Source: a virus (Duplodnaviria > Caudoviricetes). From it: a stretch of 64,000 nucleotides of DNA. The stretch lies in the IMG/VR virus record IMGVR_UViG_3300020037_004820; one strand, written 5' to 3'. The notes under the pieces were generated by a model, which saw only the letters and a program-made list of their open reading frames with translations, had not been told where the DNA came from and did no database searches. The translations under genes were made by a program, and so were the position numbers. Every line of letters starts with the position of its first letter. Position 1 is the first letter of the stretch. This document shows, in pieces, positions 8,621 to 37,614 of this stretch.

Positions 8621-10365
8621 TGATTAGAGAATTGGAATTATTTAACACATTAGGATTAGTACCAACTATAACATCGGTTTTTTTAGAGCAAAAAAACCTA
8701 AGTAAAGTCAGTGCTAATTTTCAAATAGATATACCTCTTTCTAAAAATAGAAATCCTTGGATTTTGAATGAAAAGGTTTTAAAATATTTGAATCTTACTA
8801 TAACTTTTTGTACAAATGTTGAATTATACACAATTCTATCATCTAAAACTAATGATTGGACATACAGTTATATTTCTGAAGGCGGATTCATTGAAAATAT
8901 AGATTATGTACAGATAAATAAAAAGTTACAATCTTCTTATTTAAATTTCATTGTCGAATCGGATACTAAAGACAATAAATTGATTAAAACAGGTTTTACT
9001 GAAGATGTTATATTAAATGTGGAATCTTTAAAACACTTTTCTATATTCATTGCTATAAGTTTAGATAAAAAAGAAATAGCAAAGCAATTTGATATAAATG
9101 AAGCAAAATATGTAGATCTTTTAGGTTTTTGTGAATCTGAAGTTTTTATCGAAGACTATAAGGTAGTAAATAAAAACTTAAATGATGTATCTGTTCTTTT
9201 AGATAAAGATTCTTTTAGTTTAAATTCTATAGATATTTCATCTGCTACCTCTAATATTTTATACAATTATAGAGGTACAAAAAGCAGCACATATAGTTCT
9301 GAGCTTTTCTATTCTGTAGGGCGTGATGGAAGAATCATAGGATTTTTTATAACAGATATTATTACTTTATTTAGAAATGAAAGTAGAATAGCATCTTTTT
9401 TTGATAGAAAAGAATTTCTTAAATATTTCTTCTCGTCTGAGACATTGTTTCTTCCAAAAAGAATAACTTTAAAACGAATAAACGAACAAGGAGAACAGAC
9501 GATTCTTTATGATGGAAAATATTCTACAAAAATAGATACTGATAAATGTAAAATAACAAAAAGCCATATAACTTCTGATAAAAAATTATATACAACATTT
9601 TTTGATAAAACATCAGGAGAATTATCTAAATGCTACACTTACTATGTGTATATGACTTTTCAAGATGCTACTTTTAGTTATCTAACTAAAATACTAGAAA
9701 AAATAGACAAACATGCTTTAGATATTTCAAAAATAATAAATTTAGCAAGTAGTGGACGCTATTATGATTCTATTACGAATTCTTTTTCGAATAAATTTTA
9801 TGAAGTTTTAGAATCTGAAAATTTATCCATTAAATCTGTAATTTTAGCTGTATCGGGGATATTTTCTCAATTTATGGATTTAGATTTAAATACTCAAACT
9901 AAAATACTTAATCTATCTAATAGTAAATATCATAATTTCGAAGTATTAGAGCACATATCCGATGTTTTATCCTATTTGCAAGCTCAAATTTCTAGTCTTA
10001 AATTTAGATTATCTCAAACATCTATTTTAGATATTTCTATAGAATGTTTATTCGATACGCAAGTTGATAAAACAATACATTCTAATTTTAGAGAAGAAGT
10101 TATTACAACAATAGAATCTAAAGGGTATCCTGAAATATCTAAAACAGATTTTCTTAAAAGAATTTCCAAAGAAGTTAATAAATATTATAATGTCCCAGAT
10201 ATTTCAAATCCTTTAAAAGTTTCCTATTTTTCTCCAAGTTCCTTCGGGAATAGGAAACAGTTTATAGTTCAGGATACAATAGACTTTTCTAATTTAGATA
10301 AATATAATAAAGCTCTCATAGAAATATATTACACAAATAATGTGGGACCAAAAGATGAGCTATAA
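8614..10365 (+). CDS. Hypothetical protein (probable virion protein)
   Basis: 583 aa ORF in the structural cluster; start may be ATG 8620. Confidence 0.45.
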   Translation: MLMIRELELFNTLGLVPTITSVFLEQKNLSKVSANFQIDIPLSKNRNPWILNEKVLKYLNLTITFCTNVELYTILSSKTNDWTYSYISEGGFIENIDYVQINKKLQSSYLNFIVESDTKDNKLIKTGFTEDVILNVESLKHFSIFIAISLDKKEIAKQFDINEAKYVDLLGFCESEVFIEDYKVVNKNLNDVSVLLDKDSFSLNSIDISSATSNILYNYRGTKSSTYSSELFYSVGRDGRIIGFFITDIITLFRNESRIASFFDRKEFLKYFFSSETLFLPKRITLKRINEQGEQTILYDGKYSTKIDTDKCKITKSHITSDKKLYTTFFDKTSGELSKCYTYYVYMTFQDATFSYLTKILEKIDKHALDISKIINLASSGRYYDSITNSFSNKFYEVLESENLSIKSVILAVSGIFSQFMDLDLNTQTKILNLSNSKYHNFEVLEHISDVLSYLQAQISSLKFRLSQTSILDISIECLFDTQVDKTIHSNFREEVITTIESKGYPEISKTDFLKRISKEVNKYYNVPDISNPLKVSYFSPSSFGNRKQFIVQDTIDFSNLDKYNKALIEIYYTNNVGPKDEL

Positions 10366-11170
10366 GAATGCAATAAAGAGGGCGATACAAATGAGTGTTT
10401 CAACTTTAGAAAAATTAGTAGTTATAATGCATAGATTTGGGATAGATTATAATGAATTTAATCTTAAATTTGAAAATATAGAACATTTAGAGATAAATTT
10501 CAATAATAATGTTATAGATATTCCTGACCCTGTATTATCAACATGGGAACCTTATCATTTAATCTTAGATGACGCTCTACCTATTTCTTCGTCTTATCTT
10601 GGAAATGGAGTATATTCTTATTACAATGATCCAGGTGTTTATCCAATATTATCTGTTCAAAATCCTATAAAAACTGTACAAGGAAGTATAATTTTTTGGG
10701 CATCATCATCTATAGACTTAGGAACATTTGCGTTATTGCAAAATCTTCCCAATTCTTTGGACCCGCAAATTATTGCATTTCCGACATCTATATCTGGATA
10801 TTTAATTAAACCTACAAGTGCTAATTCCCTTTACGAACCTGATACACTTTCTGAAATTCCTTTCGGAAGCTGGGGATTATTCGTCTTAACTCAAGATAAT
10901 TTAGTTCAAAAAATTTATCGAAATAATTTACTTACAGATACTGGATCATCCGCTAATTTAGTGGGAACATTAACCTTCAATTTTTATTCACATATACTTG
11001 CGAACATAGCTTTTACAAATACCGCTTTAACTTCTGAGCAAGTTACTGCCTTATGGAACGCTGGTGTGACTGCTAATTACAAAGATGTTTTAGGGTTTAC
11101 TCCTGAAGCATATTGGAGAAGTGCTCCTTTGCCTGGATCACCTTCTTATATAGCTAATGAGGTATTTTAA
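10340..11170 (+). CDS. LamG-like domain protein
   Basis: GSIIFW...WGLFVLT...KIYRNN...NIAFTNTALTSEQVTALWN is a LamG-type C-terminal pattern. Confidence 0.5.
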   Translation: MWDQKMSYKNAIKRAIQMSVSTLEKLVVIMHRFGIDYNEFNLKFENIEHLEINFNNNVIDIPDPVLSTWEPYHLILDDALPISSSYLGNGVYSYYNDPGVYPILSVQNPIKTVQGSIIFWASSSIDLGTFALLQNLPNSLDPQIIAFPTSISGYLIKPTSANSLYEPDTLSEIPFGSWGLFVLTQDNLVQKIYRNNLLTDTGSSANLVGTLTFNFYSHILANIAFTNTALTSEQVTALWNAGVTANYKDVLGFTPEAYWRSAPLPGSPSYIANEVF

Positions 11171-11614: not shown

Positions 11615-14600
11615 ATGAAAATAAGAAAATACCTTTTTAGAGATCATTACAAAGTATCAACAGATAAATTTAGAGATATTCTAGGTTTATACCATGATTA
11701 TAAAAATCAAAATCTAACAGATTTATCTAATCCTATAAAAGAAATTTTTAATCATTCTATATTTTCAATATCTGATGCAGTTATTGTAGATGAAGATCAA
11801 GGTTTATACAAACAAAATGTAACTTTTAAACCAACAAATTTAGATTCAAATCAAAGATTTTTGAATCAAGAATATAGACAAAGATCAATTGAGGAATTAG
11901 ATCAAAATTTAATTCCAAGACGTGTGGATTTTCAACAAGGAGGAAATGGTTTTATATATACCACACCTGCTCCCATTGAAGGACCTGGGGAGTTAAATAC
12001 AACTACTCAAACATCTAATAATACTTCTCCAATTGAGGTAACTGTTCCTTTAGATCCCGTTATTCCTATTTCTGGTAAAACTAATAGAGAAGTTATAGTT
12101 GATACTATTAGAAGCAATAAACATTACGAAGATATAAATACTATAGTAGATGAAGTGACTGATTTAAAAATAGGAACAGATGATTCCTATGTAAATATTG
12201 AATCTAAATACAATTTTTTCATACCAAAATACGAAGAACAGATACAATCTAATTTAATTCCTGAAGAAATTTTACCGAACTTTTATGTTGTTAGTTTAGC
12301 TCTAAATCAAGATATCTTAAATTCTATATCACAAGATGATTACAATTCTTCTTTAGCGTTAGGAAACACATCTCCTTATGAAAATCTTAATAAAAAATTT
12401 GATAAATTTATCACATTAGATGGAAACCTATCATTAGATAGAAATGGGGATATCGGGTTCTTTTTTGCTCTTGCCTTAGTAGCTTATATGGAACAATACG
12501 CGGAAGTGTATGATTCAGTATCTGTAGATTATATAGAAACTGTTAAGAAAAGATTTGGACATTTATTTAATAATTTAACTAATAAAGAAATTTTAGATAA
12601 ATTGAATGAATTTAAAAGCTCATATCCTTTATATATTAATATAGAATGGACAACTACAACATTAAGTCCTTTACTTGTCTTTCTACAAAATGCAGGAATA
12701 TCTTTGCAAGCATTACAAAGTTTTCTTGGAGACAAATTGCTTATCAAAATACAATCTTCTGGTTTATCAGAAGTTTCAAGGTTTTCTATTTTAGCACAAT
12801 CTCCTAGATTAGATTTCACAACAGGTTTAGGGCATTTTGAGGAATATTCTCAGAATCTATATACATATGATGCAGGTCAATGGATTATCGACTTTTTGCT
12901 TGAGATCTTCGCAGGGACAAGCAATGAAATAATTCACCCTAATGAGTTGCTGGTTATTGACCAAAATGGGCAAGAGATTCCGATCACTGACCAGTTTGAC
13001 CCGACGAGGGGCGCTATTGATATTTACGAAATACTCAACGCAATATCTGCTATACCTGGGTATCGGGATTTACTTAATACCTCTATACGAACGTATAAGC
13101 AACTTATAGAGGGAGATTTTGCTAAGTCGGAAGTTTTGCTATACAAAATAGAAAAAAGAAATTCACAACATGTGTTACTTCAAACATTTTATATACCTAA
13201 TGTTTCTGGAATAAATGTGCAAAATTATGTAGATACTCAAGTTAAGTATAATAAAGAATATAAATACAAAATATTTGCGTATACAGCAATTTATGGTACA
13301 GAATATTATTATTCAAGATTTCAATCTGAAACAGATGATACACATTACTATAGAGCTGGTGAAGGGCATTTATCGATTGATACAAATATTAGTTTAGGAA
13401 TGTCTAACAAAAAAGTAAAGCAACCTATTAAAGAAAATTCTATAGTAGGATATTTTAGAGTTTTATCTGCGGACGAAGGGCATCAACTATTCGATATATT
13501 TATGAACACTTCTATAGCAGGTTCTGATCAATTTACATTAGGCTTTTTTGGCGATACAACTAGTTTAAACGTAGATAATTTATTAATCAATAAATGGTAT
13601 CATTTTTCTATTGTATCTAAAAAAGTAAAATCAATAGAAGGTATATCTTTTATAAGAGAATTATACATAGACGCTAGATTAGCAGGATCTGTTATTGCAG
13701 ATCCTATAGTAGAATTTAAAAATAGAATATTAATACCAGGATATGCGCCCTCTGCAACAGATCCTCTATTTGATCCCTTTGGAAGTTTTGGGAATTATTC
13801 CACAGTTACTCGTGATATGAGTAACATAGCAGTTTTCGATAGAGCACTAGAATATTCAGAAATAAAATCCTTAAAAAATCTAGGAAGATGTTGGGATATT
13901 AGAAAATCTAAAAAAGGTATACCTCCTTTGAATATAAATGATTGGACTGGAGAGGTTCCTTCATTTTATTGGCGTAAAAAAGCTATATATAATGTAGTTA
14001 CAAATGATGGATTTGCAGGCGAAGCTAACTTGGTTCTACATGGAGATGCAGTTTCTATAAAATGCGACGACAATTCTATACCAGATGATTCTAAAAAAGA
14101 AACATTTGAACCAAGAAATATAGAACCTAGAGATATAATACCTCCTTTATTCGAAGAATATCCTGTATATGGAGAAACAGATTCTTTAACTCCTGTTGAT
14201 CCTTTTATAATTGAACCACAAGAGCCATTTAAGGGATCAACAGGAGTTCCTGAATTTTTAGACATAGGTATACCATATGAACCTCCGGGTGTTCCAGGGT
14301 ATGGAGAAGTATTTATTCCTCCAGAAGAACCTCCTTTTATTCCACAAGAATCTCCTCCTGATTTTATAAAACAAGAGGTATATATTCCTACACCTACTGT
14401 TCCTACTGTTCCAATAACAGTTCCTGGTAAAAAATATATACCTGTAATATCTGTAGGAGGAGATACAACTCCTCCAGTTCAACCTGCTCAACCTTCTACT
14501 ACATCAGGGTATGCAGAAGTATTTATTGCACCAGATGCTTCTACACCAACTGTTAGAGTAGTTCCAACAGTTATTCCAAATATGCCTAGTGTTCCTGATA

Positions 14601-14836
14601 CAAGAGTGACAACTGCGCAAATAACACCTCAAACAGCACGACCTATATCAGCAGGAGGTGGAACTTCTCCTCCGCTTGTTCCACCTAAAAAGACAGTATT
14701 TACAAGAGATACACAAGTTACTCCTGTTAAAAAAGAGCAAGCGCCTATTTTACAACCTTCTCCTGTAACTATAAAAAAAGATATAATTACTCAAAAAGCG
14801 TCTACATTAATAACAACTAAAGGTACAAAAAAATGA
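11615..14836 (+). CDS. Large virion protein with FN3-like strand pattern, LamG-like domain and Pro-rich C-terminal tail
   Basis: YVDTQVKYNKEYKYKIFAY; KWYHFSIV..LYIDAR..NIAVFDRALEYSEI; about 240 aa P/T/V/E-rich tail. Confidence 0.55.
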   Translation: MKIRKYLFRDHYKVSTDKFRDILGLYHDYKNQNLTDLSNPIKEIFNHSIFSISDAVIVDEDQGLYKQNVTFKPTNLDSNQRFLNQEYRQRSIEELDQNLIPRRVDFQQGGNGFIYTTPAPIEGPGELNTTTQTSNNTSPIEVTVPLDPVIPISGKTNREVIVDTIRSNKHYEDINTIVDEVTDLKIGTDDSYVNIESKYNFFIPKYEEQIQSNLIPEEILPNFYVVSLALNQDILNSISQDDYNSSLALGNTSPYENLNKKFDKFITLDGNLSLDRNGDIGFFFALALVAYMEQYAEVYDSVSVDYIETVKKRFGHLFNNLTNKEILDKLNEFKSSYPLYINIEWTTTTLSPLLVFLQNAGISLQALQSFLGDKLLIKIQSSGLSEVSRFSILAQSPRLDFTTGLGHFEEYSQNLYTYDAGQWIIDFLLEIFAGTSNEIIHPNELLVIDQNGQEIPITDQFDPTRGAIDIYEILNAISAIPGYRDLLNTSIRTYKQLIEGDFAKSEVLLYKIEKRNSQHVLLQTFYIPNVSGINVQNYVDTQVKYNKEYKYKIFAYTAIYGTEYYYSRFQSETDDTHYYRAGEGHLSIDTNISLGMSNKKVKQPIKENSIVGYFRVLSADEGHQLFDIFMNTSIAGSDQFTLGFFGDTTSLNVDNLLINKWYHFSIVSKKVKSIEGISFIRELYIDARLAGSVIADPIVEFKNRILIPGYAPSATDPLFDPFGSFGNYSTVTRDMSNIAVFDRALEYSEIKSLKNLGRCWDIRKSKKGIPPLNINDWTGEVPSFYWRKKAIYNVVTNDGFAGEANLVLHGDAVSIKCDDNSIPDDSKKETFEPRNIEPRDIIPPLFEEYPVYGETDSLTPVDPFIIEPQEPFKGSTGVPEFLDIGIPYEPPGVPGYGEVFIPPEEPPFIPQESPPDFIKQEVYIPTPTVPTVPITVPGKKYIPVISVGGDTTPPVQPAQPSTTSGYAEVFIAPDASTPTVRVVPTVIPNMPSVPDTRVTTAQITPQTARPISAGGGTSPPLVPPKKTVFTRDTQVTPVKKEQAPILQPSPVTIKKDIITQKASTLITTKGTKK

Positions 14837-15801
14837 GAGATATGACTGGCTTTGGGGGACTTGACCCTTTTACAAATGAGCAAAATTCTGAAAATCCTTC
14901 TTTGATTAATGCTCCAAAAGAGGAACAACAGGTTGGACCTATTAGCACAGGTGTGGAACCATCCACACCATTTACTCCTGAAAATATACAGAATATTTCT
15001 GATATCTTATTTTCGGATGAATTTCAATTCTCAGTATTTTTCAAACCTTTGTTAAAATTAGTGGAAGTAGATTATAGCGATTGGATATCCGCAAAAATAT
15101 TAGATTTTCCACCTACACCGCCTGTTGTACATTTTTGGCCTATAAAAGATGTATCTAATCGATACAATATAGCATTAGCTCCTTCGAGTGGAGAAATTCG
15201 TCAATCTCCTATAGCATTGCGTTTAAATGAAATAAGTTTTTTCAAAGATATATTAAATCAACAAAAAAGTACAGATGGCAAAATAACCTTTAAATATGAA
15301 GGAGAAATTGCTCAATATGAAATGTTTAGAATAGAAAATACTCCTTTAAGTTGGAAATCTTTCACACAAGATTCTACGAGTGTTAAAAAGATTTTTTCGG
15401 GATATGAAAATTTTCTATTTCAAGAATCGATTCAATCTAATAAGGACTATTATTATACCTTTAGAGCATATGATTTTCATTTGAAGTTTTCAAATCCTTC
15501 TCCAATTTATAAAGTAAGAATATACGAAAACGATGGAGTGGAGTATTTAGATGTAAAAGTATTCAATTTTCCTGAGAAGAAAAAAATAATTTCAAAAGAT
15601 TTTAGAAAGTTTATTAGAATTGATACATCTTTGGAACAAAAAACTTATAAAGAACCAAACTCCTCATTAGAAACAGAAGGAAAATTAGGCTTATACGATG
15701 AATCTTCTTATAATCGAAAATTTGTATTAAGAATTACAAGTAAGCATACAGGAAAAACATTAGATGTTGTTCTAAATTTTGTAAAAGAGGATATAATCTG
15801 A
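14833..15801 (+). CDS. Virion protein with FN3/Ig-like pattern
   Basis: PPTPPVV...YEMFR...NKDYYYTFRAYD..FSNPS; ATGA overlap with the upstream gene. Confidence 0.5.
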   Translation: MRDMTGFGGLDPFTNEQNSENPSLINAPKEEQQVGPISTGVEPSTPFTPENIQNISDILFSDEFQFSVFFKPLLKLVEVDYSDWISAKILDFPPTPPVVHFWPIKDVSNRYNIALAPSSGEIRQSPIALRLNEISFFKDILNQQKSTDGKITFKYEGEIAQYEMFRIENTPLSWKSFTQDSTSVKKIFSGYENFLFQESIQSNKDYYYTFRAYDFHLKFSNPSPIYKVRIYENDGVEYLDVKVFNFPEKKKIISKDFRKFIRIDTSLEQKTYKEPNSSLETEGKLGLYDESSYNRKFVLRITSKHTGKTLDVVLNFVKEDII

Positions 15802-29229: not shown

Positions 29230-31398
29230 ATGCCAAACGATAAAGCAGAATATTTTGCAAAAATAAGGGAAGCTAAAAAAGAAAAAGCTAAAACAGTTTA
29301 TAATCCATCTAACGTATTATATAACAAATTAACTAAGTTCTTCTCTGGACCTGTTGTAAAATTTAAAACTCCAGACATTGCTAATACAAATAAAATAAAT
29401 CTTTCTAAACATGATTGGAAAGATTCATTTCATACACCATTTAAGCGAACAGAAGAATATTTTCTTATAAATGAAGCGCAAATTGAGCAAAATCAAGAAA
29501 CAGCAAGAATGGAAAGATATGTTGATCTTGAAAATATGGAATTATCTCCTCCTGAGATTAAAGTTGCGTTAGATATATATGCGGATGAAATAACTTGTTA
29601 TACAGAATTTTCTCCTATATTAAAAATTATTTGTCCTAAAGATGAAATACGAGAAATATTACGTTCATTATTTTATGATACTTTGAATGTGCCTATGAAT
29701 CTCTTTAGATGGGTTCGTGCAATGTGTTCAAAAGGTGATTTCTTTTTATTTTTAGATATAGATCCAAAATTAGGAGTAGTTGGAACTAAAGCATTACCCA
29801 CTATGGCTATTCAAAGATTAGAAGGCGAAGATCCTACTAATCCAAACTATATTCAATTTCAATGGAATGATAAAGGAATAACATTTGAAAATGTTGAAAT
29901 AGCTCACTTTAGAATATTAGGAAATGATAAATATTATCCATATGGTACAAGTATCTTAGATGCTTCTAGAAAAATTACCAAACAACTAAATTTAATGATC
30001 GAACATATGATGACATATCGTATAGTAAGATCGTCTGAAAAAAGAGCTTTTTATTATGATATTGGTGGTATGCCAAGCACAGAGCAAGAGACTTATTTAG
30101 AAAAAGCTATTAGTAAAACAAAAAGACAATCTGTTATCAATGCAGATAATGGTCAATTAGACCTAAGATATAATGTAGTAGGAGTTGAAGAAGATTATCA
30201 TATCCCTACACGAAAAGGTTCTGAAACTAGAATCGAGCCACTTCCGGGTGGACAATTTGTGGGAGACATAGAAGACGTTGAATTCCTAAGAGATCAATTG
30301 TTTACATCTCTAAAAATTCCTGGCTCATATCTGACTAATAAAAACGCAGATGGAGAACAGAATTCATTAGCACAGAAGAGTATGCTTTTCGCAAAAGAGA
30401 TAACAAGAATTCAGCATTCTGTTGTTGCCGAGTTGCGTAAGATAGCAATGGTGCATCTTATAACATTAGGATATACAGGTAAAGATATTTTATCTTTTGA
30501 TATTAGATTAAATAATCCTTCTAAACTTGCGGAAATGCAAGAATTTGAACATCTTAAATTAAAATCTGAAGCGGCTTCCCTATTGTCAGATCATAATTTA
30601 AGTAAGAGATGGATTCAATCTAATATATTTGGTTTTTCTCCTGATGAGATTAAGCAAAATGTTTACGAAATTCTGGGTGATGCTAAATTCCAAGCAATTC
30701 TCTCTAATATAGAGAATGCAGTTGCAGGTGGAGGAGTTCCAGGGATGGATGGAGGAGGCGGTGCAGGTGGTGCATTAGGTGGACCATCCCCAGATGGATC
30801 TATTCCTGGATTAGACCAAATGGCTGGAGGAGAAGGTGAGCCACAAGCTAACCCTGAAGATGAATTTGTACAATTAGGAGGAGAAGGTGGAGGAATGATG
30901 CCACCGGGGGAACAAGGACGAAGAAGTGATGGTGAATCCAGATTCCTAACTCCTAAATCTCTACGTTCTTATCAAACAGCTAATTCTAGAGGAAATGCGC
31001 ATAGTAAAACAACCTCAGATGGAAGAAACCAAAGATTCAATCAAATGAATGCAACAACAGGAAGAAATGTTGTTAGAAGCAATCATAAAGCTATTGCACA
31101 TGGTTATGATCATTTGATTGCAGGAATTTTCCCTTCTTTACATAATGAAAATAATGTATTAAATGACGAACAACTTCTTACTGAAGAAAATTTGATAACA
31201 AATATAGAGCATTCCATGGTGGAATCTATCAATCTTCTATCTAGTATAGATGAAGATCGTAAAGAGCGAAAGCAACTTATTAACAAAAGTTTAGCTAATT
31301 ACAAACAAGATGAAGTCGTGAATAAAATAGTTACAGATAGAAAACAAAGAATAGATGAATATATAAAAACCATTCATTTTACAGGGAGAACATCATGA
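29230..31398 (+). CDS. Portal protein (T4 gp20-like) with long Gly-rich C-terminal extension
   Basis: ALDIYADE, YRIVRSSEKRAFYYDIG, EEDYHIP, IEPLPGG, DIEDVEFLRDQLFTSLKIP. Confidence 0.93.
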   Translation: MPNDKAEYFAKIREAKKEKAKTVYNPSNVLYNKLTKFFSGPVVKFKTPDIANTNKINLSKHDWKDSFHTPFKRTEEYFLINEAQIEQNQETARMERYVDLENMELSPPEIKVALDIYADEITCYTEFSPILKIICPKDEIREILRSLFYDTLNVPMNLFRWVRAMCSKGDFFLFLDIDPKLGVVGTKALPTMAIQRLEGEDPTNPNYIQFQWNDKGITFENVEIAHFRILGNDKYYPYGTSILDASRKITKQLNLMIEHMMTYRIVRSSEKRAFYYDIGGMPSTEQETYLEKAISKTKRQSVINADNGQLDLRYNVVGVEEDYHIPTRKGSETRIEPLPGGQFVGDIEDVEFLRDQLFTSLKIPGSYLTNKNADGEQNSLAQKSMLFAKEITRIQHSVVAELRKIAMVHLITLGYTGKDILSFDIRLNNPSKLAEMQEFEHLKLKSEAASLLSDHNLSKRWIQSNIFGFSPDEIKQNVYEILGDAKFQAILSNIENAVAGGGVPGMDGGGGAGGALGGPSPDGSIPGLDQMAGGEGEPQANPEDEFVQLGGEGGGMMPPGEQGRRSDGESRFLTPKSLRSYQTANSRGNAHSKTTSDGRNQRFNQMNATTGRNVVRSNHKAIAHGYDHLIAGIFPSLHNENNVLNDEQLLTEENLITNIEHSMVESINLLSSIDEDRKERKQLINKSLANYKQDEVVNKIVTDRKQRIDEYIKTIHFTGRTS

Positions 31399-32213
31399 CC
31401 ATGAGTCATAATAAAAAAAGAAATACTGCTTTTTTGTTTGAAGTTTTGCTTAAAGAGCAAACAAAAGCTATTCTCGAAAAGAAAGATGCTAAAGCAAAAT
31501 ATATTGAAAAAGTTATAAAAGAGTATTTCGCGATAGATTCTATTCTTTATAAAGAATTGGAACTATATAACTCTTTATTAGAATACAGAGATAGAAACGG
31601 TGAAGATGTTGATAAAATCATTTTATTAACTAAAACTGAAAGAGCTACTCTTAACGATAAAGAAATTTATGAATCTCAAAGTAAATTAATATCTATAATC
31701 AATAAAAAATTGGGACCTGATGTTTTCTACAATTTTGTTCCAAACTATAAAGAATTAGCTACTATTAATATTTTATTTTCCAAGCAAACTCCTTTCAATA
31801 TTAAAGTTAAAATGGAAGAAAGTTTAAAAAATCATTTACAAACTGCTTTACCTAAAGAAGAATATATAGAAGAAAAAGTAGATTCTCTAATATTCAAGAA
31901 ATGTGTTGAAAACTTCAATGGGAAATATGAATCTTTATTAGACGAGCAAAAAGAGTTATTATCTAAATATTTACTGTCTAAGTTCGGAGATACTATTGAT
32001 TTCCCTATATATTTGAATGCAGAATGTAAAAGATTATCCAATTCTATAGAAAAAACTAAAGAAAAAGTTAAAGAAGATAAAACTTTATATGAAAATATAA
32101 AGTTAGCTTTATCTAATCTAAAATCTTCTTCTGTAAAATATAACGATGATTTATTCATATATTCTATACTGAAGCATCAACAGTTAGCAAGAGAACTTGA
32201 AAATGGCGAATAA
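31395..32213 (+). CDS. Hypothetical head-module protein
   Basis: HNKKRNTAFLFEVL N-terminus; directly after the portal gene. Confidence 0.6.
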   Translation: MTMSHNKKRNTAFLFEVLLKEQTKAILEKKDAKAKYIEKVIKEYFAIDSILYKELELYNSLLEYRDRNGEDVDKIILLTKTERATLNDKEIYESQSKLISIINKKLGPDVFYNFVPNYKELATINILFSKQTPFNIKVKMEESLKNHLQTALPKEEYIEEKVDSLIFKKCVENFNGKYESLLDEQKELLSKYLLSKFGDTIDFPIYLNAECKRLSNSIEKTKEKVKEDKTLYENIKLALSNLKSSSVKYNDDLFIYSILKHQQLARELENGE

Positions 32214-32709
32214 AGCAATAACTATAAAATTTAGACAGATATCTAAAACGTTAGATGGGAACTTGTTGATCGGAGATCATGAACAAGTTTATTTTGTTTT
32301 ATCTCCTGAAAAAAGAAAAATTACTCTTATATCTAAACAAGATTTAAAAGATGATTTTTTCATGGTACAAAAACGCTTTTTAGAATTTGCTTTAAAATAT
32401 GGAATGTTAGTAATGGGATCAGAATCCACAGGATATTTACCTGGGATGTTTGAATTTAGTTATCCAGAAAGTGACAAGCATGATTCAGTTAAAGTTATGT
32501 TACGTTTAATATCGATGTTTATTACTGGTGAAAAAGCTATCTATGACAGAATAAATGCACATGAAGAAGAGATGGAAAAACGTTTATTAGATCCTGATGA
32601 AGAAAATTCTACAGAATTAGGAGAAGTTCCTCATGAAGATAAAAAAGGTGTAAAAATAAACAATCCTTATCTTAGTTATATGACCTCATGGTTCGGGTGG
32701 TACGTCTAA
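32197..32709 (+). CDS. Hypothetical head-module protein
   Basis: 170 aa; C-terminal PDEENSTELGEVPHEDKKG. Confidence 0.55.
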   Translation: MKMANKAITIKFRQISKTLDGNLLIGDHEQVYFVLSPEKRKITLISKQDLKDDFFMVQKRFLEFALKYGMLVMGSESTGYLPGMFEFSYPESDKHDSVKVMLRLISMFITGEKAIYDRINAHEEEMEKRLLDPDEENSTELGEVPHEDKKGVKINNPYLSYMTSWFGWYV

Positions 32710-33326
32710 TGAATGAAATAACTCTAAATAAAAATGATTTACTTGATATAATCAAAGAAGAAATAGTACGTTTTTCTGAAAAGAAAGAACACAACGAAAT
32801 TGTCAATAACTTTGCAAATAAATTTTCAACTGTATTTGTAGAAGCTTTAGAACTAAAAGACACAGATTCTAAGGACAAAATTTTTACAGAAGCTGTAAAT
32901 TTTGTCAAAAAATACAAAAAAGAAATAATCGCCTCTACAGTTGACCCTACCTTTTTAAAGTTACGTGAACAATATCAAATTGTCACTAAAAATAAAAACA
33001 GAAATATTCTAGGATTAGTTGAAACTAAATTGTCTTCATTAAATGAATCAAAATCTCCTTCTAAAAATATTATATTAGAAGGAGATTTATTTTTCGGATT
33101 AGAAGATAATGTTTTAAGATTAGGGGAGTATAAAGGCAAAGAAGTTGTTATAAATGTTCCATTTTTAGGAAACGAGAAAAAGTACAAGATATATATTGAA
33201 AATAAAGGTAAAATAGAGAAAGTAGAATTTGGGGAATCTAATATGTCTATAAAAAAATCTAACCCAAATTTGAATGAACAATCTGTATGGATTTGTAAAA
33301 ATTGGACAGAAGGTACTGATAAATGA
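32709..33326 (+). CDS. Hypothetical, probable prohead core/internal protein
   Basis: Repeated IKEE/LNE/ILE motifs; C-terminal EYKGKEV..KVEFG..NMSIKK..WICKNW. Confidence 0.5.
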   Translation: MNEITLNKNDLLDIIKEEIVRFSEKKEHNEIVNNFANKFSTVFVEALELKDTDSKDKIFTEAVNFVKKYKKEIIASTVDPTFLKLREQYQIVTKNKNRNILGLVETKLSSLNESKSPSKNIILEGDLFFGLEDNVLRLGEYKGKEVVINVPFLGNEKKYKIYIENKGKIEKVEFGESNMSIKKSNPNLNEQSVWICKNWTEGTDK

Positions 33327-33955
33327 GTTTAAAATCAGAACGTCTATTATTAAAAGAATTTTATGATTTAGATGACAAATGGCTTAAAGAAAATAAGTCA
33401 AGTTCTGGTACTATTTTTTTAACAGGTATAATTCAAAGAGCTGATAAGAAAAATCAAAATGGAAGAATTTATCCAAGAAAAGTTTTAGAAGCTGCCTTTG
33501 AGGCATACAAAAAAAAGATAAAGGATAATAGATCTGCTGGAGAAGCAAATCATCCATCTAATAGCGTAGATATAGATCTATTGAAAATTTCCCATATCAT
33601 AAAAGATATATGGTGGGAAGGAGACGATCTTTACGGACGTTTACAAATAACTTCTAATACTGTAGGTAAAGATATACAAGCATTAATCAATGACGGTTTA
33701 ATGTTAGGCATATCTTCTAGAGGATATGGCTCTGTTTCTAAAAAAGATGGAGATATTATAGTAAATGAAGATTTCGAATTAGTTTGCTTTGACTTAGTAC
33801 ATGATCCTTCGACAACAGGAGCATTTGTTCTAAAAGAAGGTGTATATGTCAAGGTACAAGAAACTGATTTGTTCACAGAGAAAAAACTTATTATACCCGA
33901 ACAAAAAAAATTACATACACTTGTTGAACAAATTCTACAAATAAAGAAGGTGTAA
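33323..33955 (+). CDS. Prohead maturation protease (T4 gp21-like)
   Basis: NQNGRIYP, GEANHP (His), GISSRGYGS (Ser), FDLVHDPST (Asp). Confidence 0.95.
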   Translation: MSLKSERLLLKEFYDLDDKWLKENKSSSGTIFLTGIIQRADKKNQNGRIYPRKVLEAAFEAYKKKIKDNRSAGEANHPSNSVDIDLLKISHIIKDIWWEGDDLYGRLQITSNTVGKDIQALINDGLMLGISSRGYGSVSKKDGDIIVNEDFELVCFDLVHDPSTTGAFVLKEGVYVKVQETDLFTEKKLIIPEQKKLHTLVEQILQIKKV

Positions 33956-33956
33956 A

Positions 33957-34397
33957 ATGGCTGGATTAACTAGAAAAGATATTAAAGATATAATGAAAGA
34001 AGCTGTAAAAGAAGCATTAACAGACAACACACTTCTTAAAGAGATGATTGCTGAATGTATAAAAACTTCGGTAGTTACAATACTTAAAGAAATAAATATA
34101 CAAGATACTCAAATAACAGAGAGTAGAGATGTTAGACCTTCACAATCTTTGTTTCAAGAAAAACCGTTGATTACTTCTGCGTCTAAAACAAATGTAGGTA
34201 AAAAACCTGTACAACAAAGACCTCCAAGTGAGCCAGCTTTTTCACCAGAAGCAATGAGAGCTATGTTTGAAAATGAATTTGGAGTGGGAACACCTTCGGC
34301 AGCACCACACAGTAATCCAGCTAAAATAAACATTCAGGATATGAATGATACAGAAGAAGATGATCCTCGTGTCTTAAGGGCATTAGGAATAAGATAA
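33957..34397 (+). CDS. Hypothetical head-module protein
   Basis: IKDIMKEAVKEAL..LLKE N-terminal helix. Confidence 0.55.
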   Translation: MAGLTRKDIKDIMKEAVKEALTDNTLLKEMIAECIKTSVVTILKEINIQDTQITESRDVRPSQSLFQEKPLITSASKTNVGKKPVQQRPPSEPAFSPEAMRAMFENEFGVGTPSAAPHSNPAKINIQDMNDTEEDDPRVLRALGIR

Positions 34398-34406
34398 GGA
34401 GTTAAA

Positions 34407-34634
34407 ATGAAACCGTTAAATTTTGAAGTAGTAGAAAAGCCAGGAGAATCAACTGATAAGTTGATCAAGAAATTTTTGAAGAAAACATCTAGAAATAAGA
34501 TTGTACAAACCTGTTTAGATAAGATGTATTTTCAAAGTGATTCAAGTAAAGGACGTAATAAACGCTCTAGAAAGAAGTATATAAAGCAAAAAATCCAAGA
34601 GAATCATGAAAAAGCTATAAACTCTGAAAAATGA
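34407..34634 (+). CDS. rpsU: Phage-encoded ribosomal protein bS21-like
   Basis: 75 aa, basic; V..GESTDKLIKKFLKK...IV......YF.S.S..R.KR fits the bS21 pattern; lies in the head module. Confidence 0.72.
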   Translation: MKPLNFEVVEKPGESTDKLIKKFLKKTSRNKIVQTCLDKMYFQSDSSKGRNKRSRKKYIKQKIQENHEKAINSEK

Positions 34635-34646
34635 GAAAAATACTAA

Positions 34647-34654
34647 CTATTTAC
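34647..34654 (+). promoter_or_regulatory. Putative late-promoter motif CTATTTAC
   Basis: Intergenic CTAWTTA before the scaffold gene. Confidence 0.55.
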
Positions 34655-34681
34655 GTGTGACTATACAGGAAGATATAAAAT

Positions 34682-35851
34682 ATGCCACAATCAGATGATA
34701 TATTACAACAAGCTATTTTAGATGTAAACAAGATTAAAAATGTTAGTCTTAAAGTGGCTAAAGAAAAATTACAGCAACAATACTCCAATGATTTACGTAA
34801 AAAATATATCAAAGAGATGACTGATAATTTTGGTGATAATGATGATATAACATTATTCGAGGATATCAATGATATCTTGGGGGAAGACGATCCAAACGCT
34901 TCACCCGAGGGTGATACTCCCGGCGCAATTCCTGGTCAACCTAAACCTGGGGAACCTACACCCGGAGTAGGTGCTCCTGAAACTGGATTAACTCCATCAC
35001 CAGAAGGTGAAAATGGATTACCTCCACAAGCAGGTGCAGTTGATTCTCCCGTTTTACAATCAGATATTCCAGTTGCTGGAGTAGATGATACGTCTAATGG
35101 ATCTGTAATAGTTCTTAATTTAGGGGATGGAGAATCTCCATTCGATCTAGATGCGAACGAAGCTGATCTTAAAGCACAGACTTCTGAATTATTGGCGGGA
35201 CAACAAGGTGTTCCTCCTCAAGATCCAACCGCAGCACTTCCGGGTTCTAATCCTGTTGATGCTACGGGCGGAATGTTGCCTCCAGAAGAACAAGGAAGAC
35301 GTTCTGGAGAAGATCCTATTTTTGCAGGAATCTTTGATGAAGAAGATCCATATTTGCAAGAACCAGGACTTAGAGCTGAAGGCTCTTTAAAAATTTCTGA
35401 TGAAATTTTACTAGAATATATACAAAAATCATTGAATAATGAAGATAATTTCAAAACTCTATATTCGACTATAGAGAAATTACAAACAGATGTCGATAAT
35501 TTGTCTAAACAACTGAATAAATCTAATTCGGATTTGACAAATCTAAAAGAACAAAACATTCGCTTAATGTATAAAAATCAAGCACTTAATGATGACTCTC
35601 TGAGTGAGCCACAAAAACAAAGTATTGTCAAGGCACTAGATAAAGCTAAGACTCTAAGTGAAGCTAAAGCTGTTTATGAAACAGTTGCAACTTCGACCTC
35701 AAAACCAAACAAAAAAGCTACAGACGTTAATACTCTTTTAGCAGATAATGCAACTCGTAAATTTCTGAATGAAGATAAACAATCTCCAACAGAAGAAAAA
35801 CCAGAATTAACATCTATAACTAAAAAATTGTTTGAGAAATGGGGAATTTGA
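34682..35851 (+). CDS. Prohead scaffolding protein
   Basis: Acidic, P/G-rich disordered middle and coiled-coil C-terminus (NIRLMYKN..QKQSIVKALDKAKTLSEAKAVYE); immediately upstream of the capsid gene. Confidence 0.8.
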   Translation: MPQSDDILQQAILDVNKIKNVSLKVAKEKLQQQYSNDLRKKYIKEMTDNFGDNDDITLFEDINDILGEDDPNASPEGDTPGAIPGQPKPGEPTPGVGAPETGLTPSPEGENGLPPQAGAVDSPVLQSDIPVAGVDDTSNGSVIVLNLGDGESPFDLDANEADLKAQTSELLAGQQGVPPQDPTAALPGSNPVDATGGMLPPEEQGRRSGEDPIFAGIFDEEDPYLQEPGLRAEGSLKISDEILLEYIQKSLNNEDNFKTLYSTIEKLQTDVDNLSKQLNKSNSDLTNLKEQNIRLMYKNQALNDDSLSEPQKQSIVKALDKAKTLSEAKAVYETVATSTSKPNKKATDVNTLLADNATRKFLNEDKQSPTEEKPELTSITKKLFEKWGI

Positions 35852-35898: not shown

Positions 35899-37614
35899 AT
35901 GGATGATTTTCTAAAAGTAATAATGGATAGCGATGTTATCGAATCCAGATTAGATAAAGACAATAAGCTTGTTGAAAAATGGGGCAAGTATGGTTTCCTT
36001 AAGGGGATCACTGACGACAACAAGAAAAGAACTATAGCTCGTTTGTTTGAGAACCAAAAGAATCAAATGAAGAGACAAATTGTGCTAGAGCAAACCTCTA
36101 TGGCAGGAGGTGATGTTCAAGGGTTTGCAGCGGTTTCTATGCCGATTATTCGAAGAGTCTTCGGTAACTTAATCGGAGCTTCTGAAGTTGTATCTGTACA
36201 ATCTCTTGATCAGCCTGTTGGTCTTATATTCGTATTAGACTTCACTGCTGGAACAAATAAAGGTGGAATGGGTCTTGCTCAAAACGCTTCTATTTATGGT
36301 CAAGGTAGAGTTGGTGCACAGATTCTGAGCGGAGCTGATTTATCAGGTATCAACGCAGAAACTGGTTTCACTGCTCTTAACCAAGGTTATACACAACCTT
36401 CTGGATCTGTTACCATGGTTGCTGCAACTACTTTCGGGTCGTTCTTAGCATCTGGTACAGTTGGTGGAATTGATAATACTTTAGATAGATGGGTAAGATT
36501 TGATCAAGATTTATCTGGATCTTTCGTTGCCGTGTTGACTGCTTCTAAAGGATTGTTCCCACAATTGTTAGAAAAATCTTATATGGCGATTGCTGACTCT
36601 TCTACAACTTCTGGAACTTTGGTTAAGAGATTAATCCAAGAATACGCTCCAGATCCTACAAAAGTTGTATTGATTTACTCTGGTGCATCTCTTGGTGCTC
36701 TGAATGAATTAACAAATACAGCTAACCTTCGTACATACAAATATCCTATCTATGACAACTTTGCATCTGTAAACGGTGTATATTCTGCCATACAAGGTAC
36801 AACTCCTTGGGGATTTGAATGGGACGGTTCTGCTGGACAAAACGGTGAAATTCCTGAAATCGACTTGAAAGTTGAAGCATTCAATATTCAAACTAACACT
36901 AGAATGTTGAGAGCAAAATGGACAGCGCAGGTTTCACAAGACTTAGCGGCATGGCAAAATATGGATGCAGAAGTGGAATTGACTTCTGTTCTTTCAGAAC
37001 AAGTTGCAATGGAAATTGACATGGAGGTTCTAAAGGACCTTGTTGAAGGTGGAAAAGCAACTGTTAGATACTGGTCACGTAGACCTGGACGTTTCGTTAC
37101 TCGTACAACGGGTGAAGTTATTCCTGCTGCGCAAACTGGTGACTTTACAGGTAACGTTGCAGAATGGTATCAGACCTTATTGGAAACAATAAACGATATC
37201 TCTGCACAGATTGCACGTAAGGTTCTAAGAGGTGGTGCAACTTTCCTTGTAACTTCTCCAGAAGTTCAATCGATTCTTGAATCTACAAATCAATGGTATG
37301 CTACAACTACGGTTGGAGAATCTGAGAAAGGTGGTCAAGCTGGATTGAAGAAAGAAGGTTCTGTTTCGAAGAAATGGGATGTTATGGTTAGCCCTTACTT
37401 CCTAAGAAACGTTATATTAGTTGGACGTAAAGGTTCTTCTAATCTAGAAACAGGATATGTATACGCTCCTTATGTTCCTCTTATCACTTCTCCTACAATT
37501 CCTAATCCAGATAACCTGTTTGTGTACAACAAGGGTGTTATGACAAGATATGGAAAGAAAATGATTAGACCAGATATGTACGCCTTGTGCATCATATTGA
37601 ATCTTGAAGGCTAA
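35899..37614 (+). CDS. Major capsid protein (T4 gp23-like)
   Basis: LVEKW, LFENQ, PIIRRVF, VSVQ..P.GLIF, TRMLRAKWT, DAEVEL..EIDMEVL, GYVYAPYVPL, GVMTRYG. Confidence 0.96.
   Translation: MDDFLKVIMDSDVIESRLDKDNKLVEKWGKYGFLKGITDDNKKRTIARLFENQKNQMKRQIVLEQTSMAGGDVQGFAAVSMPIIRRVFGNLIGASEVVSVQSLDQPVGLIFVLDFTAGTNKGGMGLAQNASIYGQGRVGAQILSGADLSGINAETGFTALNQGYTQPSGSVTMVAATTFGSFLASGTVGGIDNTLDRWVRFDQDLSGSFVAVLTASKGLFPQLLEKSYMAIADSSTTSGTLVKRLIQEYAPDPTKVVLIYSGASLGALNELTNTANLRTYKYPIYDNFASVNGVYSAIQGTTPWGFEWDGSAGQNGEIPEIDLKVEAFNIQTNTRMLRAKWTAQVSQDLAAWQNMDAEVELTSVLSEQVAMEIDMEVLKDLVEGGKATVRYWSRRPGRFVTRTTGEVIPAAQTGDFTGNVAEWYQTLLETINDISAQIARKVLRGGATFLVTSPEVQSILESTNQWYATTTVGESEKGGQAGLKKEGSVSKKWDVMVSPYFLRNVILVGRKGSSNLETGYVYAPYVPLITSPTIPNPDNLFVYNKGVMTRYGKKMIRPDMYALCIILNLEG

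Follow-up and report, generated by a model that had tools for sequence, protein, structure and literature searches.

The stretch of DNA analysed in this study (hereafter referred to as the window) is 64,000 nucleotides in length, was taken from the virus record IMGVR_UViG_3300020037_004820 (Caudoviricetes; GC content 31%), and includes a head module with the genes for a portal protein, a prohead protease, a putative scaffold protein and a major capsid protein (Table 1). An earlier note on this DNA had drawn attention to a peptide of 13 residues carried by both the portal and the putative scaffold. Here we describe the two copies of this peptide, their distribution among related phages and the roles that they may play in head assembly.

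The portal open reading frame (ORF) matches PF07230 (E-value 1.3e-57 over residues 95-481) and phrog_213 (portal), and the AlphaFold2 (AF2) model of its product gave the T4 gp20 structures 9mkb, 6uzc and 3ja7 as the best matches in Foldseek (E-values 1e-13 to 1e-11). The product of ORF 29230-31398 is a portal of the T4 gp20 type by both sequence and fold. After the last crown helix (residues 471-499) begins an extra tail of about 220 residues, of which residues 500-579, including the peptide, were modelled with no secondary structure and with a predicted local distance difference test score (pLDDT) of about 30, and thus are predicted to be disordered.

The putative scaffold ORF gave no Pfam match at E-values up to 10 and no PHROG match at E-values up to 5, and its product could not be assigned by sequence to the T4 gp22-type family. 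In all the syntenic relatives, the gene is located between the gene for S77 prohead protease, with a bS21-like gene intervening, and the gene for gp23-type capsid protein. The AF2 model of the product consists of an N-terminal helix (residues 4-49), a long disordered acidic middle, a helix at residues 156-175 and a coiled coil at residues 240-303. The segment around the peptide (residues 176-235) has pLDDT of about 38-50 and no secondary structure, and is likewise predicted to be disordered.

Table 1. Features of the head module, with positions in the window
Feature	Position	Strand	Remarks
Portal gene, 722 residues; T4 gp20-type core (residues ~75-499) plus C-terminal tail of ~220 residues	29230..31398	+	
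Flexible Gly/Pro/acidic linker of portal, residues 500-553	30727..30888	+	Tethers motif to crown; pLDDT 30-35, no secondary structure
Portal motif with conserved acidic/aromatic extension DGESRF, residues 554-572	30889..30945	+	Homologous to family-wide L-L-A-x-P-P-G-K-R-D-D
C-terminal helical hairpin of portal, residues 642-714	31153..31371	+	Helices 642-689 and 693-714; pLDDT 72-91
Prohead protease, S77, T4 gp21 type	33323..33955	+	PF03420, E-value 2.1e-30; phrog_207; candidate partner or processing enzyme
Putative scaffold gene, 389 residues, positional analogue of T4 gp22	34682..35851	+	Between protease and capsid genes
Scaffold motif, residues 196-208	35267..35305	+	Conservation island in 8 clade scaffolds; pLDDT below 50
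Adjacent older conserved scaffold element IFAGIFDEEDPY, residues 213-224	35318..35353	+	Conservation 0.90 in clade A
Major capsid protein, gp23 type	35899..37614	+	PF07068, E-value 2.4e-53; candidate partner

A peptide common to the portal and the putative scaffold

The portal copy of the peptide, GGMMPPGEQGRRS (positions 30889-30927, residues 554-566 of 722), and the scaffold copy, GGMLPPEEQGRRS (positions 35267-35305, residues 196-208 of 389), are identical at 11 of 13 residues in the translated window. In translation, the segments around them read ...GGEGGGMMPPGEQGRRSDGESRFLTPKS (30829-30960) and ...DATGGMLPPEEQGRRSGEDPIFAGIFDE (35207-35365). Among the 11 identical residues, 6 are encoded by different codons (GGT/GGC, CCA/CCT, CCG/CCA, CGA/AGA, AGA/CGT and AGT/TCT for portal/scaffold), and the nucleotide identity of the two copies is 28 out of 39 by hand count over the 13 codons. 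The match at these positions, the six codon differences, including AGT against TCT for Ser and CGA-AGA against AGA-CGT for Arg-Arg, and the conservation at the level of protein but not of DNA, all claimed in the earlier note, were reproduced by translation of both segments and by codon comparison, the synonymous codons varying at invariant residues.

As a test for chance resemblance between two stretches of biased composition, both low-complexity regions were shuffled 3000 times with their composition preserved, and the best 13-mer match was scored each time. The mode of the best match was 6 and its maximum 9, as compared with 11 observed. A chance match is excluded, and the Gly/Pro/acidic composition does not explain the similarity. 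In the profile-profile comparison of the two protein families, only the 22 columns of this match were aligned (E-value 1.2e-5).

A third copy was not found in the window, where the six-frame scan detected the portal and scaffold copies only. In addition, the motif hidden Markov model (HMM) detected no third carrier among the head-module ORFs of all the loci fetched, and none was identified among longer proteins in a word-index search, which returned only 35 candidates and is weak in this respect.

Conservation and history of the two copies

Relatives of the window were collected by word-index searches of a large protein collection together with contig look-ups, yielding four complete syntenic head modules of the same clade (L081-L084). 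The word-index searches provided seven further scaffolds with 64-80% identity and five portals with tails 57-63% identical. The motif is kept in all 8 clade scaffolds, including that of the window (P0004-P0011), and in all the clade portals, at least 9 in number (P0003, P0024-P0028 and L081-L084). The scaffold pattern is M/L-L-P-P-x-E-[QE]-G-[RK]-R-[ST/E], after which come acidic residues and [IL]-F-[AS]-G-I-F; in the portals, the pattern M-[ML]-P-[PT]-G-E-Q-G-R-R-[ST] leads into acidic residues and [FY]-L-T-P. In the alignment of the 8 clade scaffolds, the majority residue accounts for a fraction of 0.88 within the motif, in contrast to 0.35-0.48 in the indel-rich stretch just upstream. The adjacent element IFAGIFDEEDPY is also present in the scaffolds of a neighbouring clade without the motif (clade B; DIFSDEF..).

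The codons at the conserved residues are well mixed, including CCA, CCT, CCG and CCC for Pro, GGA and GGT for Gly, AGA and CGT for the second Arg, and as many as five codons (AGT, TCT, TCC, TCA and TCG) for the Ser of the motif. Altogether, the codon differences in the motif are 180 synonymous versus 80 non-synonymous, the latter being concentrated at three tolerant positions, and the few residue changes are conservative (M/L, R/K and S/T). Since the portal-scaffold nucleotide identity within one genome (0.67-0.82) is no higher than that between genomes, selection appears to act on the peptide without refreshment by gene conversion. Recent gene conversion was rejected on this ground; an extra ELGG match upstream of the motif in L082 is lineage-specific. 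The motif is a selected short linear motif in a disordered region. This part of the earlier note is borne out by the retention throughout the clade, the free synonymous variation and the predicted disorder of both copies.

For the wider family, we examined 80 IMG/VR loci, 4 further assembly contigs (L085-L088) and the output of a tail-profile search of 1.84 billion cluster representatives. The tail profile gave 585 cluster representatives at E-value 0.001 or below and 364 at 1e-10 or below. A strict motif pattern fits 87 of the 150 top hits, and most of the non-fitting hits inspected carry variant forms. As judged from these data, T4-like phages of a large uncultured marine family share the portal tail as a conserved module. 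In this tail, a Gly/Asp/Glu/Ala/Pro linker, present in all family portals with variable length, is followed by [acidic]-x-L-L-A-x-P-(optional spacer)-P-G-K-R-D-D, then by S-K-G-K-x-Y-x-P ... D-x-R-x-x-G-x-R, and finally by the helical hairpin, which is conserved across the family portals with the consensus Y..EE...F....LIE.LE. The motif is thus flanked by linkers and spacers of variable length. Its commonest core is KRDD, but RRSD, KRDE, RRDD and others also occur, and R565 of the portal motif is at least 90% conserved in 66 aligned family portals. Above the crown, the C-terminal hairpin could assemble into a 12-fold bundle, recalling the barrel of the P22 portal.

As aligned with this family pattern, M-M-P-P-G-E-Q-G-R-R-S-D of the window is the family motif with E-Q-G inserted, and the neighbouring clades carry intermediate forms such as L-L-M-K-P-G-E-K-G-S-R, L-L-V-K-P-G-E-Q-H-R-R-S and V-L-I-K-P-G-E-Q-G-H-R. 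In the tree of portal cores, the window clade is supported at 100/100, with L001 as a weakly supported sister and clade B (L088, L086 and L002) next. Among cultured phages, the closest are Microcystis phage Mel-JY01 and Flavobacterium phage immuto, with a portal-core identity of only 33-40%. The motif was found in no cultured phage, the tail of phage immuto being short with only a degenerate K-P-G-R-P-R-E.

The distribution of the scaffold copy is markedly different. It is absent from the scaffolds of L001, of clade B and of 13 more distant genomes, both at that place and elsewhere. Of the 23 genomes with both genes, 4 gave portal-scaffold similarity above the shuffle null, all belonging to the window clade, as did the window itself, and independent recurrence was detected in none of the 19 other family genomes. 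Because the scaffold copy is found only in the window clade and is absent from its sister and from more distant genomes, the simplest history would be a single gain on the stem of the clade. Both the E-Q-G insertion particular to this clade and the acidic-x-acidic-Ser stretch behind it recur in the scaffold copy (for instance, MMPPGEQGRRTDGDS versus MLPPGEQGRRSEGES in L083). For this reason, a short in-frame patch was probably copied from the portal gene rather than produced by convergence, with no trace remaining in the DNA.

To regard the two copies as equals turned out to be wrong. From the family alignments, the peptide of the portal is an old feature of the whole family, and that of the scaffold arose later as a look-alike within a single clade. 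Absence of the motif from one of the two proteins in close relatives, which the note had named as evidence against its proposal, was indeed observed at portal identity of 63% or less, where the portal version is kept and the scaffold copy is missing.

Two other resemblances between portal and scaffold were tried and rejected. Segments near the scaffold C-terminus (S-T-M-L-P-R-R-K..., and I-L-T-P-N-T-G-K-K-F in clade B) were examined as a family-wide second copy, but the family portal-motif HMM gave at most 2.8 bits, which is not significant. In L001, a weak A-R-R-x-S resemblance is seen between the portal (9041-11164; ...KPAARRSSPL...) and the scaffold (14392-15573; ...KGLARRGSKL...). As a co-varying pair, AARRSS and LARRGS were treated as a chance match, being similar over 4-5 residues in one lineage, with no match in the related scaffolds P0017, P0018 and P0022.

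Possible role of the peptide in the prohead

We regard it as an evenly balanced proposition that the peptide serves as a short linear docking motif, at first that of the portal, for one prohead component common to both copies. The portal tail would project from the crown into the head interior, with the linker followed by the peptide, a basic stretch and the helical hairpin, and the peptide itself presents a hydrophobic pair, a Pro-Pro kink and two basic residues, and then acidic residues. In T4, the capsid encloses the stem, wing and crown (PMC9958956), and the tail, which continues from the crown, should accordingly lie within the prohead, as does the scaffold. Twelve portal copies would be held at the crown on leashes of about 55 residues, and in the window clade many more copies would be supplied on the scaffold. 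Because scaffolds are removed before DNA entry, the shared function would be exerted during prohead assembly or maturation, and this order of events argues against a shared DNA-binding role of the two copies.

Under the docking proposal, both copies would act inside the prohead, before scaffold removal, by binding one site on one prohead component, and the portal tails and scaffold subunits would plug into the same assembly network when the head nucleates on the portal. The scaffold would have acquired the near-exact, clade-specific peptide a single time, within its disordered acidic middle, and selection at the protein level would have held it thereafter. As the receptor, the inner face or the N-terminal arm of the major capsid protein may be preferred, a weak ranking made because this arm is acidic (MDDFLKVIMDSDVIESRLDKD...), and the scaffold's own helical domains and the prohead protease would be the next candidates. 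One complex prediction, in which the capsid protein, the protease and scaffold residues 230-389 were folded together against the portal tail (residues 540-590), gave a score of 0.00, a result that was counted neither for nor against binding.

Several observations weigh against the docking proposal. The phages outside the clade assemble without a scaffold copy, and hence the copy is not essential to the assembly plan of the family. Co-variation of the two copies, which the earlier note had suggested looking for, was not seen; the portals are mostly RRT, the scaffolds RRS and one scaffold KRE, and nothing couples the copies beyond their shared conservation. The clade is tight, with portal cores about 94% identical, and the scaffold copy has accordingly been kept for a modest length of time, even though the clade scaffolds have diverged to 64-80% identity despite these tight portal cores. 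The name scaffold is itself inferred from the gene position and the predicted architecture. Finally, the AF2 monomer models show neither raised confidence at the motif nor a sign of docking in cis, although this outcome is uninformative rather than negative.

A more specific version of the docking proposal, possible but rather doubtful, is that the portal tail of this family, roughly 200 residues long, forms a built-in, tethered 'scaffold arm', the peptide being the address that captures the first core or capsid subunits and the flexible tethers bridging the 12-to-5 symmetry mismatch. If this is true, the scaffold copy of the window clade would reveal a single receptor site for which scaffold and portal compete, or through which they chain, and no docking code would have been defined for the prohead core of T4 type before this peptide.

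The portal might instead be the receptor. The scaffold motif would then bind the portal core at the wing or crown, and the copy on the portal tail would be a tethered pseudo-ligand, acting in cis or on the neighbouring subunit, that aids ring closure or gates scaffold entry; the clade scaffold would have evolved the same peptide to compete. The order hydrophobic-hydrophobic-P-(P)-G-E does resemble the YYPGE of the HSV-1 (herpes simplex virus 1) scaffold implicated in portal binding, the C-loop of P22 scaffold sits in a hydrophobic cleft between portal wings, and with a flexible linker of some 55 residues, the tail would be able to reach the wing of its own portal. Nevertheless, we consider this unlikely, since the full-length portal model has pLDDT of about 30 at the motif with no signal of cis-docking, the members without the scaffold copy would need another route of scaffold-portal binding, and the family-wide L-L-A-x-P-P-G-K-R-D-D lacks the Glu of 'PGE'.

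The earlier note had also raised the possibility of a processing site, in which the S77 prohead protease would cut after P-P-x-E↓Q-G-R-R, or would use the motif as an exosite, so that the tail is removed and the scaffold fragmented at maturation. Several features fit such a role. The Glu is invariant in the clade motif and is followed by Gln, or by Glu in one scaffold. Both carriers are inside the prohead together with the protease, and the T4 scaffolds are substrates of the protease (PMC9958956). In the capsid protein, a likely maturation site also has the E↓Q form: within residues 58-70, Q-I-V-L-E↓Q-T-S-M-A-G-G-D (window 35899-36100, + strand), E64 is invariant in 18 family capsid proteins. 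When aligned by eye, this Glu of I-V-L-E↓Q-T-S coincides with what we take to be the cleavage site of T4 gp23. IVLE↓QTS is a candidate maturation site, at which cleavage would remove about 64 N-terminal residues.

The same comparison speaks against cleavage at the motif. The rule for cleavage by T4 gp21 is [L/I]-x-E↓, P3 being aliphatic. Conserved candidate sites in the present phage obey this rule, namely V-L-E↓Q in the capsid protein and the invariant L-K-E↓Q, L-S-E↓P and L-x-E↓A in the scaffold, and because they fit, the protease probably keeps the [aliphatic]-x-Glu rule. With the invariant Glu of the capsid protein, a Glu-specific enzyme is also more likely than one that cuts at Asp (R-x-D). 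The motif, however, has Pro at P3 in all 16 distinct clade sequences. In addition, the ancestral family-wide portal motif (P-P-G-K-R-D-D) contains no Glu at all, and T4-type cleavage sites are far shorter than the 13-17 residues conserved here. Given the misfit to the Glu-specific [L/I/V]-x-E pattern and the ancestral form without Glu, a role as a processing site appears distinctly improbable, though use of the motif as an exosite is conceivable.

Modification of the motif has even less to recommend it. In this reading, an enzyme of phage or host would phosphorylate the hydroxyl residue of R-R-[S/T]-[D/E], or modify it in another way, for co-regulation of both proteins. Of the 16 distinct clade sequences, 15 have S or T at this position and the remaining one has E, and the residue is usually D in the rest of the family, as expected when a phospho-acceptor replaces an acidic residue. 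Interchange between S/T and D/E, however, equally fits a simple polar contact, and the conservation extends over a whole stretch of 11-17 residues beyond the basic-S/T core; we judge such a modification very improbable.

The least probable reading is that the scaffold copy is a tolerated relic of patch duplication from the portal gene, persisting because the clade is young, for although the portal cores are about 94% identical and the relatives outside the clade do without the copy, the surrounding scaffold has diverged heavily with indels (0.35-0.48 upstream against 0.88 in the motif), the synonymous sites are well mixed (180 versus 80) and the few residue changes are conservative. An internal translation start at the ATG/TTG of the motif was rejected, since 4 of 5 scaffold genes lack an upstream Shine-Dalgarno-like sequence and the GGAGG of the portal gene consists of Gly codons.

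Neighbouring genes and known systems

Immediately downstream of the portal gene, two genes at 31395-32213 and 32197-32709 (+ strand) overlap the portal stop and each other, suggesting translational coupling. Their homologues were found in 70 and 59 of the 80 family loci, respectively. The two products gave no match in Pfam, PHROG or ESM Atlas, and the 32197 product ends in an aromatic tail, ...SWFGWYV. Being family-specific like the portal tail, both are candidates for partners of the tail. Between the protease and bS21-like genes, the gene at 33957-34397 (+ strand) encodes a protein of 146 residues with an N-terminal amphipathic helix. Its end, ...DPRVLRALGIR, resembles the scaffold C-terminus ...KKLFEKWGI and the ...DRMKRLAGI(K) ends of distant scaffolds. 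From this resemblance, it is probably a second small core protein with the C-terminal tag of the scaffold.

The gene for bS21-like ribosomal protein itself (34407-34634, + strand; PF01165, 27.5 bits against the cut-off of 27) lies between the protease and scaffold genes, and the same position is occupied by such a gene in 8 of 8 syntenic relatives (L081-L088). The scaffold homologue of immuto (L089:11991-13232, MW353176.1), which has a similarly conserved N-terminal helix and the end ...RWQKLAGIIK, is annotated as 'DNA polymerase phi-like protein', a label that looks like an error arising from the acidic low-complexity middle. Inteins were noticed in some relatives: P0028 is a portal of 1085 residues with the intein-splicing domain PF14890, L085:1118-4171 and L086:1458-4382 are large terminases of 1017 and 974 residues with LAGLIDADG/Hint domains, and several tail-profile hits of 950-1450 residues are probably intein-bearing portals.

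Docking peptides shared among head-assembly proteins are a known principle, as represented by the T4 capsid targeting sequence (CTS), phage 80alpha and CpmB, HSV-1 and P22. The T4 CTS, a sequence of about 10 residues, is carried by the internal proteins IPI-III (PMC9958956). It resembles the present case in that a peptide is common to several proteins of a T4-type prohead core, the window having the same gp20/gp21/gp23 head module. The CTS, however, is N-terminal, is removed at an adjacent [L/I]-x-E site and marks cargo, whereas the present motif is internal, has no such site and is located on structural assembly proteins. Identity with the CTS was rejected, since the motif is internal in both carriers and an internal start is unlikely.

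The scaffolding protein of phage 80alpha and CpmB of SaPI1 compete for one site on the capsid protein (PMC5644958). This system is similar in that two head-assembly proteins use the same short docking peptide for the same site, one of them being a later mimic, but its peptides are C-terminal helices on scaffold-type proteins of different elements, while those described here are internal and disordered and belong to the portal and scaffold of one phage.

In P22, R293 and K296 of the scaffold hook bind the capsid protein at its acidic N-arm, and the hydrophobic C-loop is lodged between the portal wings (PMC12005531). A hydrophobic pair and a basic pair are likewise present in the motif, and the capsid protein of the window has an acidic N-terminal arm. 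The P22 elements, however, are folded (the hook as a helix-turn-helix), and the P22 portal has no copy.

For HSV-1, an interaction of scaffold (pUL26/pUL26.5) residues 143-151, with YYPGE, with conserved tryptophans of the portal pUL6 is cited (10.1101/2020.09.30.320457). This too is a short scaffold peptide for coupling of portal and scaffold at procapsid nucleation, with a similar hydrophobic pair, Pro, Gly and Glu. The resemblance is in pattern only, without homology, and the HSV-1 portal carries no copy of the peptide, in contrast to the portal tail of the present family, which is the original owner.

What is new here is the family-wide conservation of a peptide on a long disordered portal tail, the fact that one clade later came to carry it in the scaffold as well, and the direction of the relation between the two. 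In the literature, for which our coverage was incomplete, no description of such a portal tail or motif was found, and this is weak evidence of absence. As a practical limit, no cultured carrier was found.

[quoted passage not shown] Even in T4, it is not settled how the scaffolding core and shell are nucleated by the portal. A conserved, mutable peptide on a flexible portal tail, occurring across hundreds of sequence clusters of marine T4-like phages, offers a testable handle on the coupling of portal and core, and its second copy in the scaffold of one clade represents a natural experiment on the same coupling.

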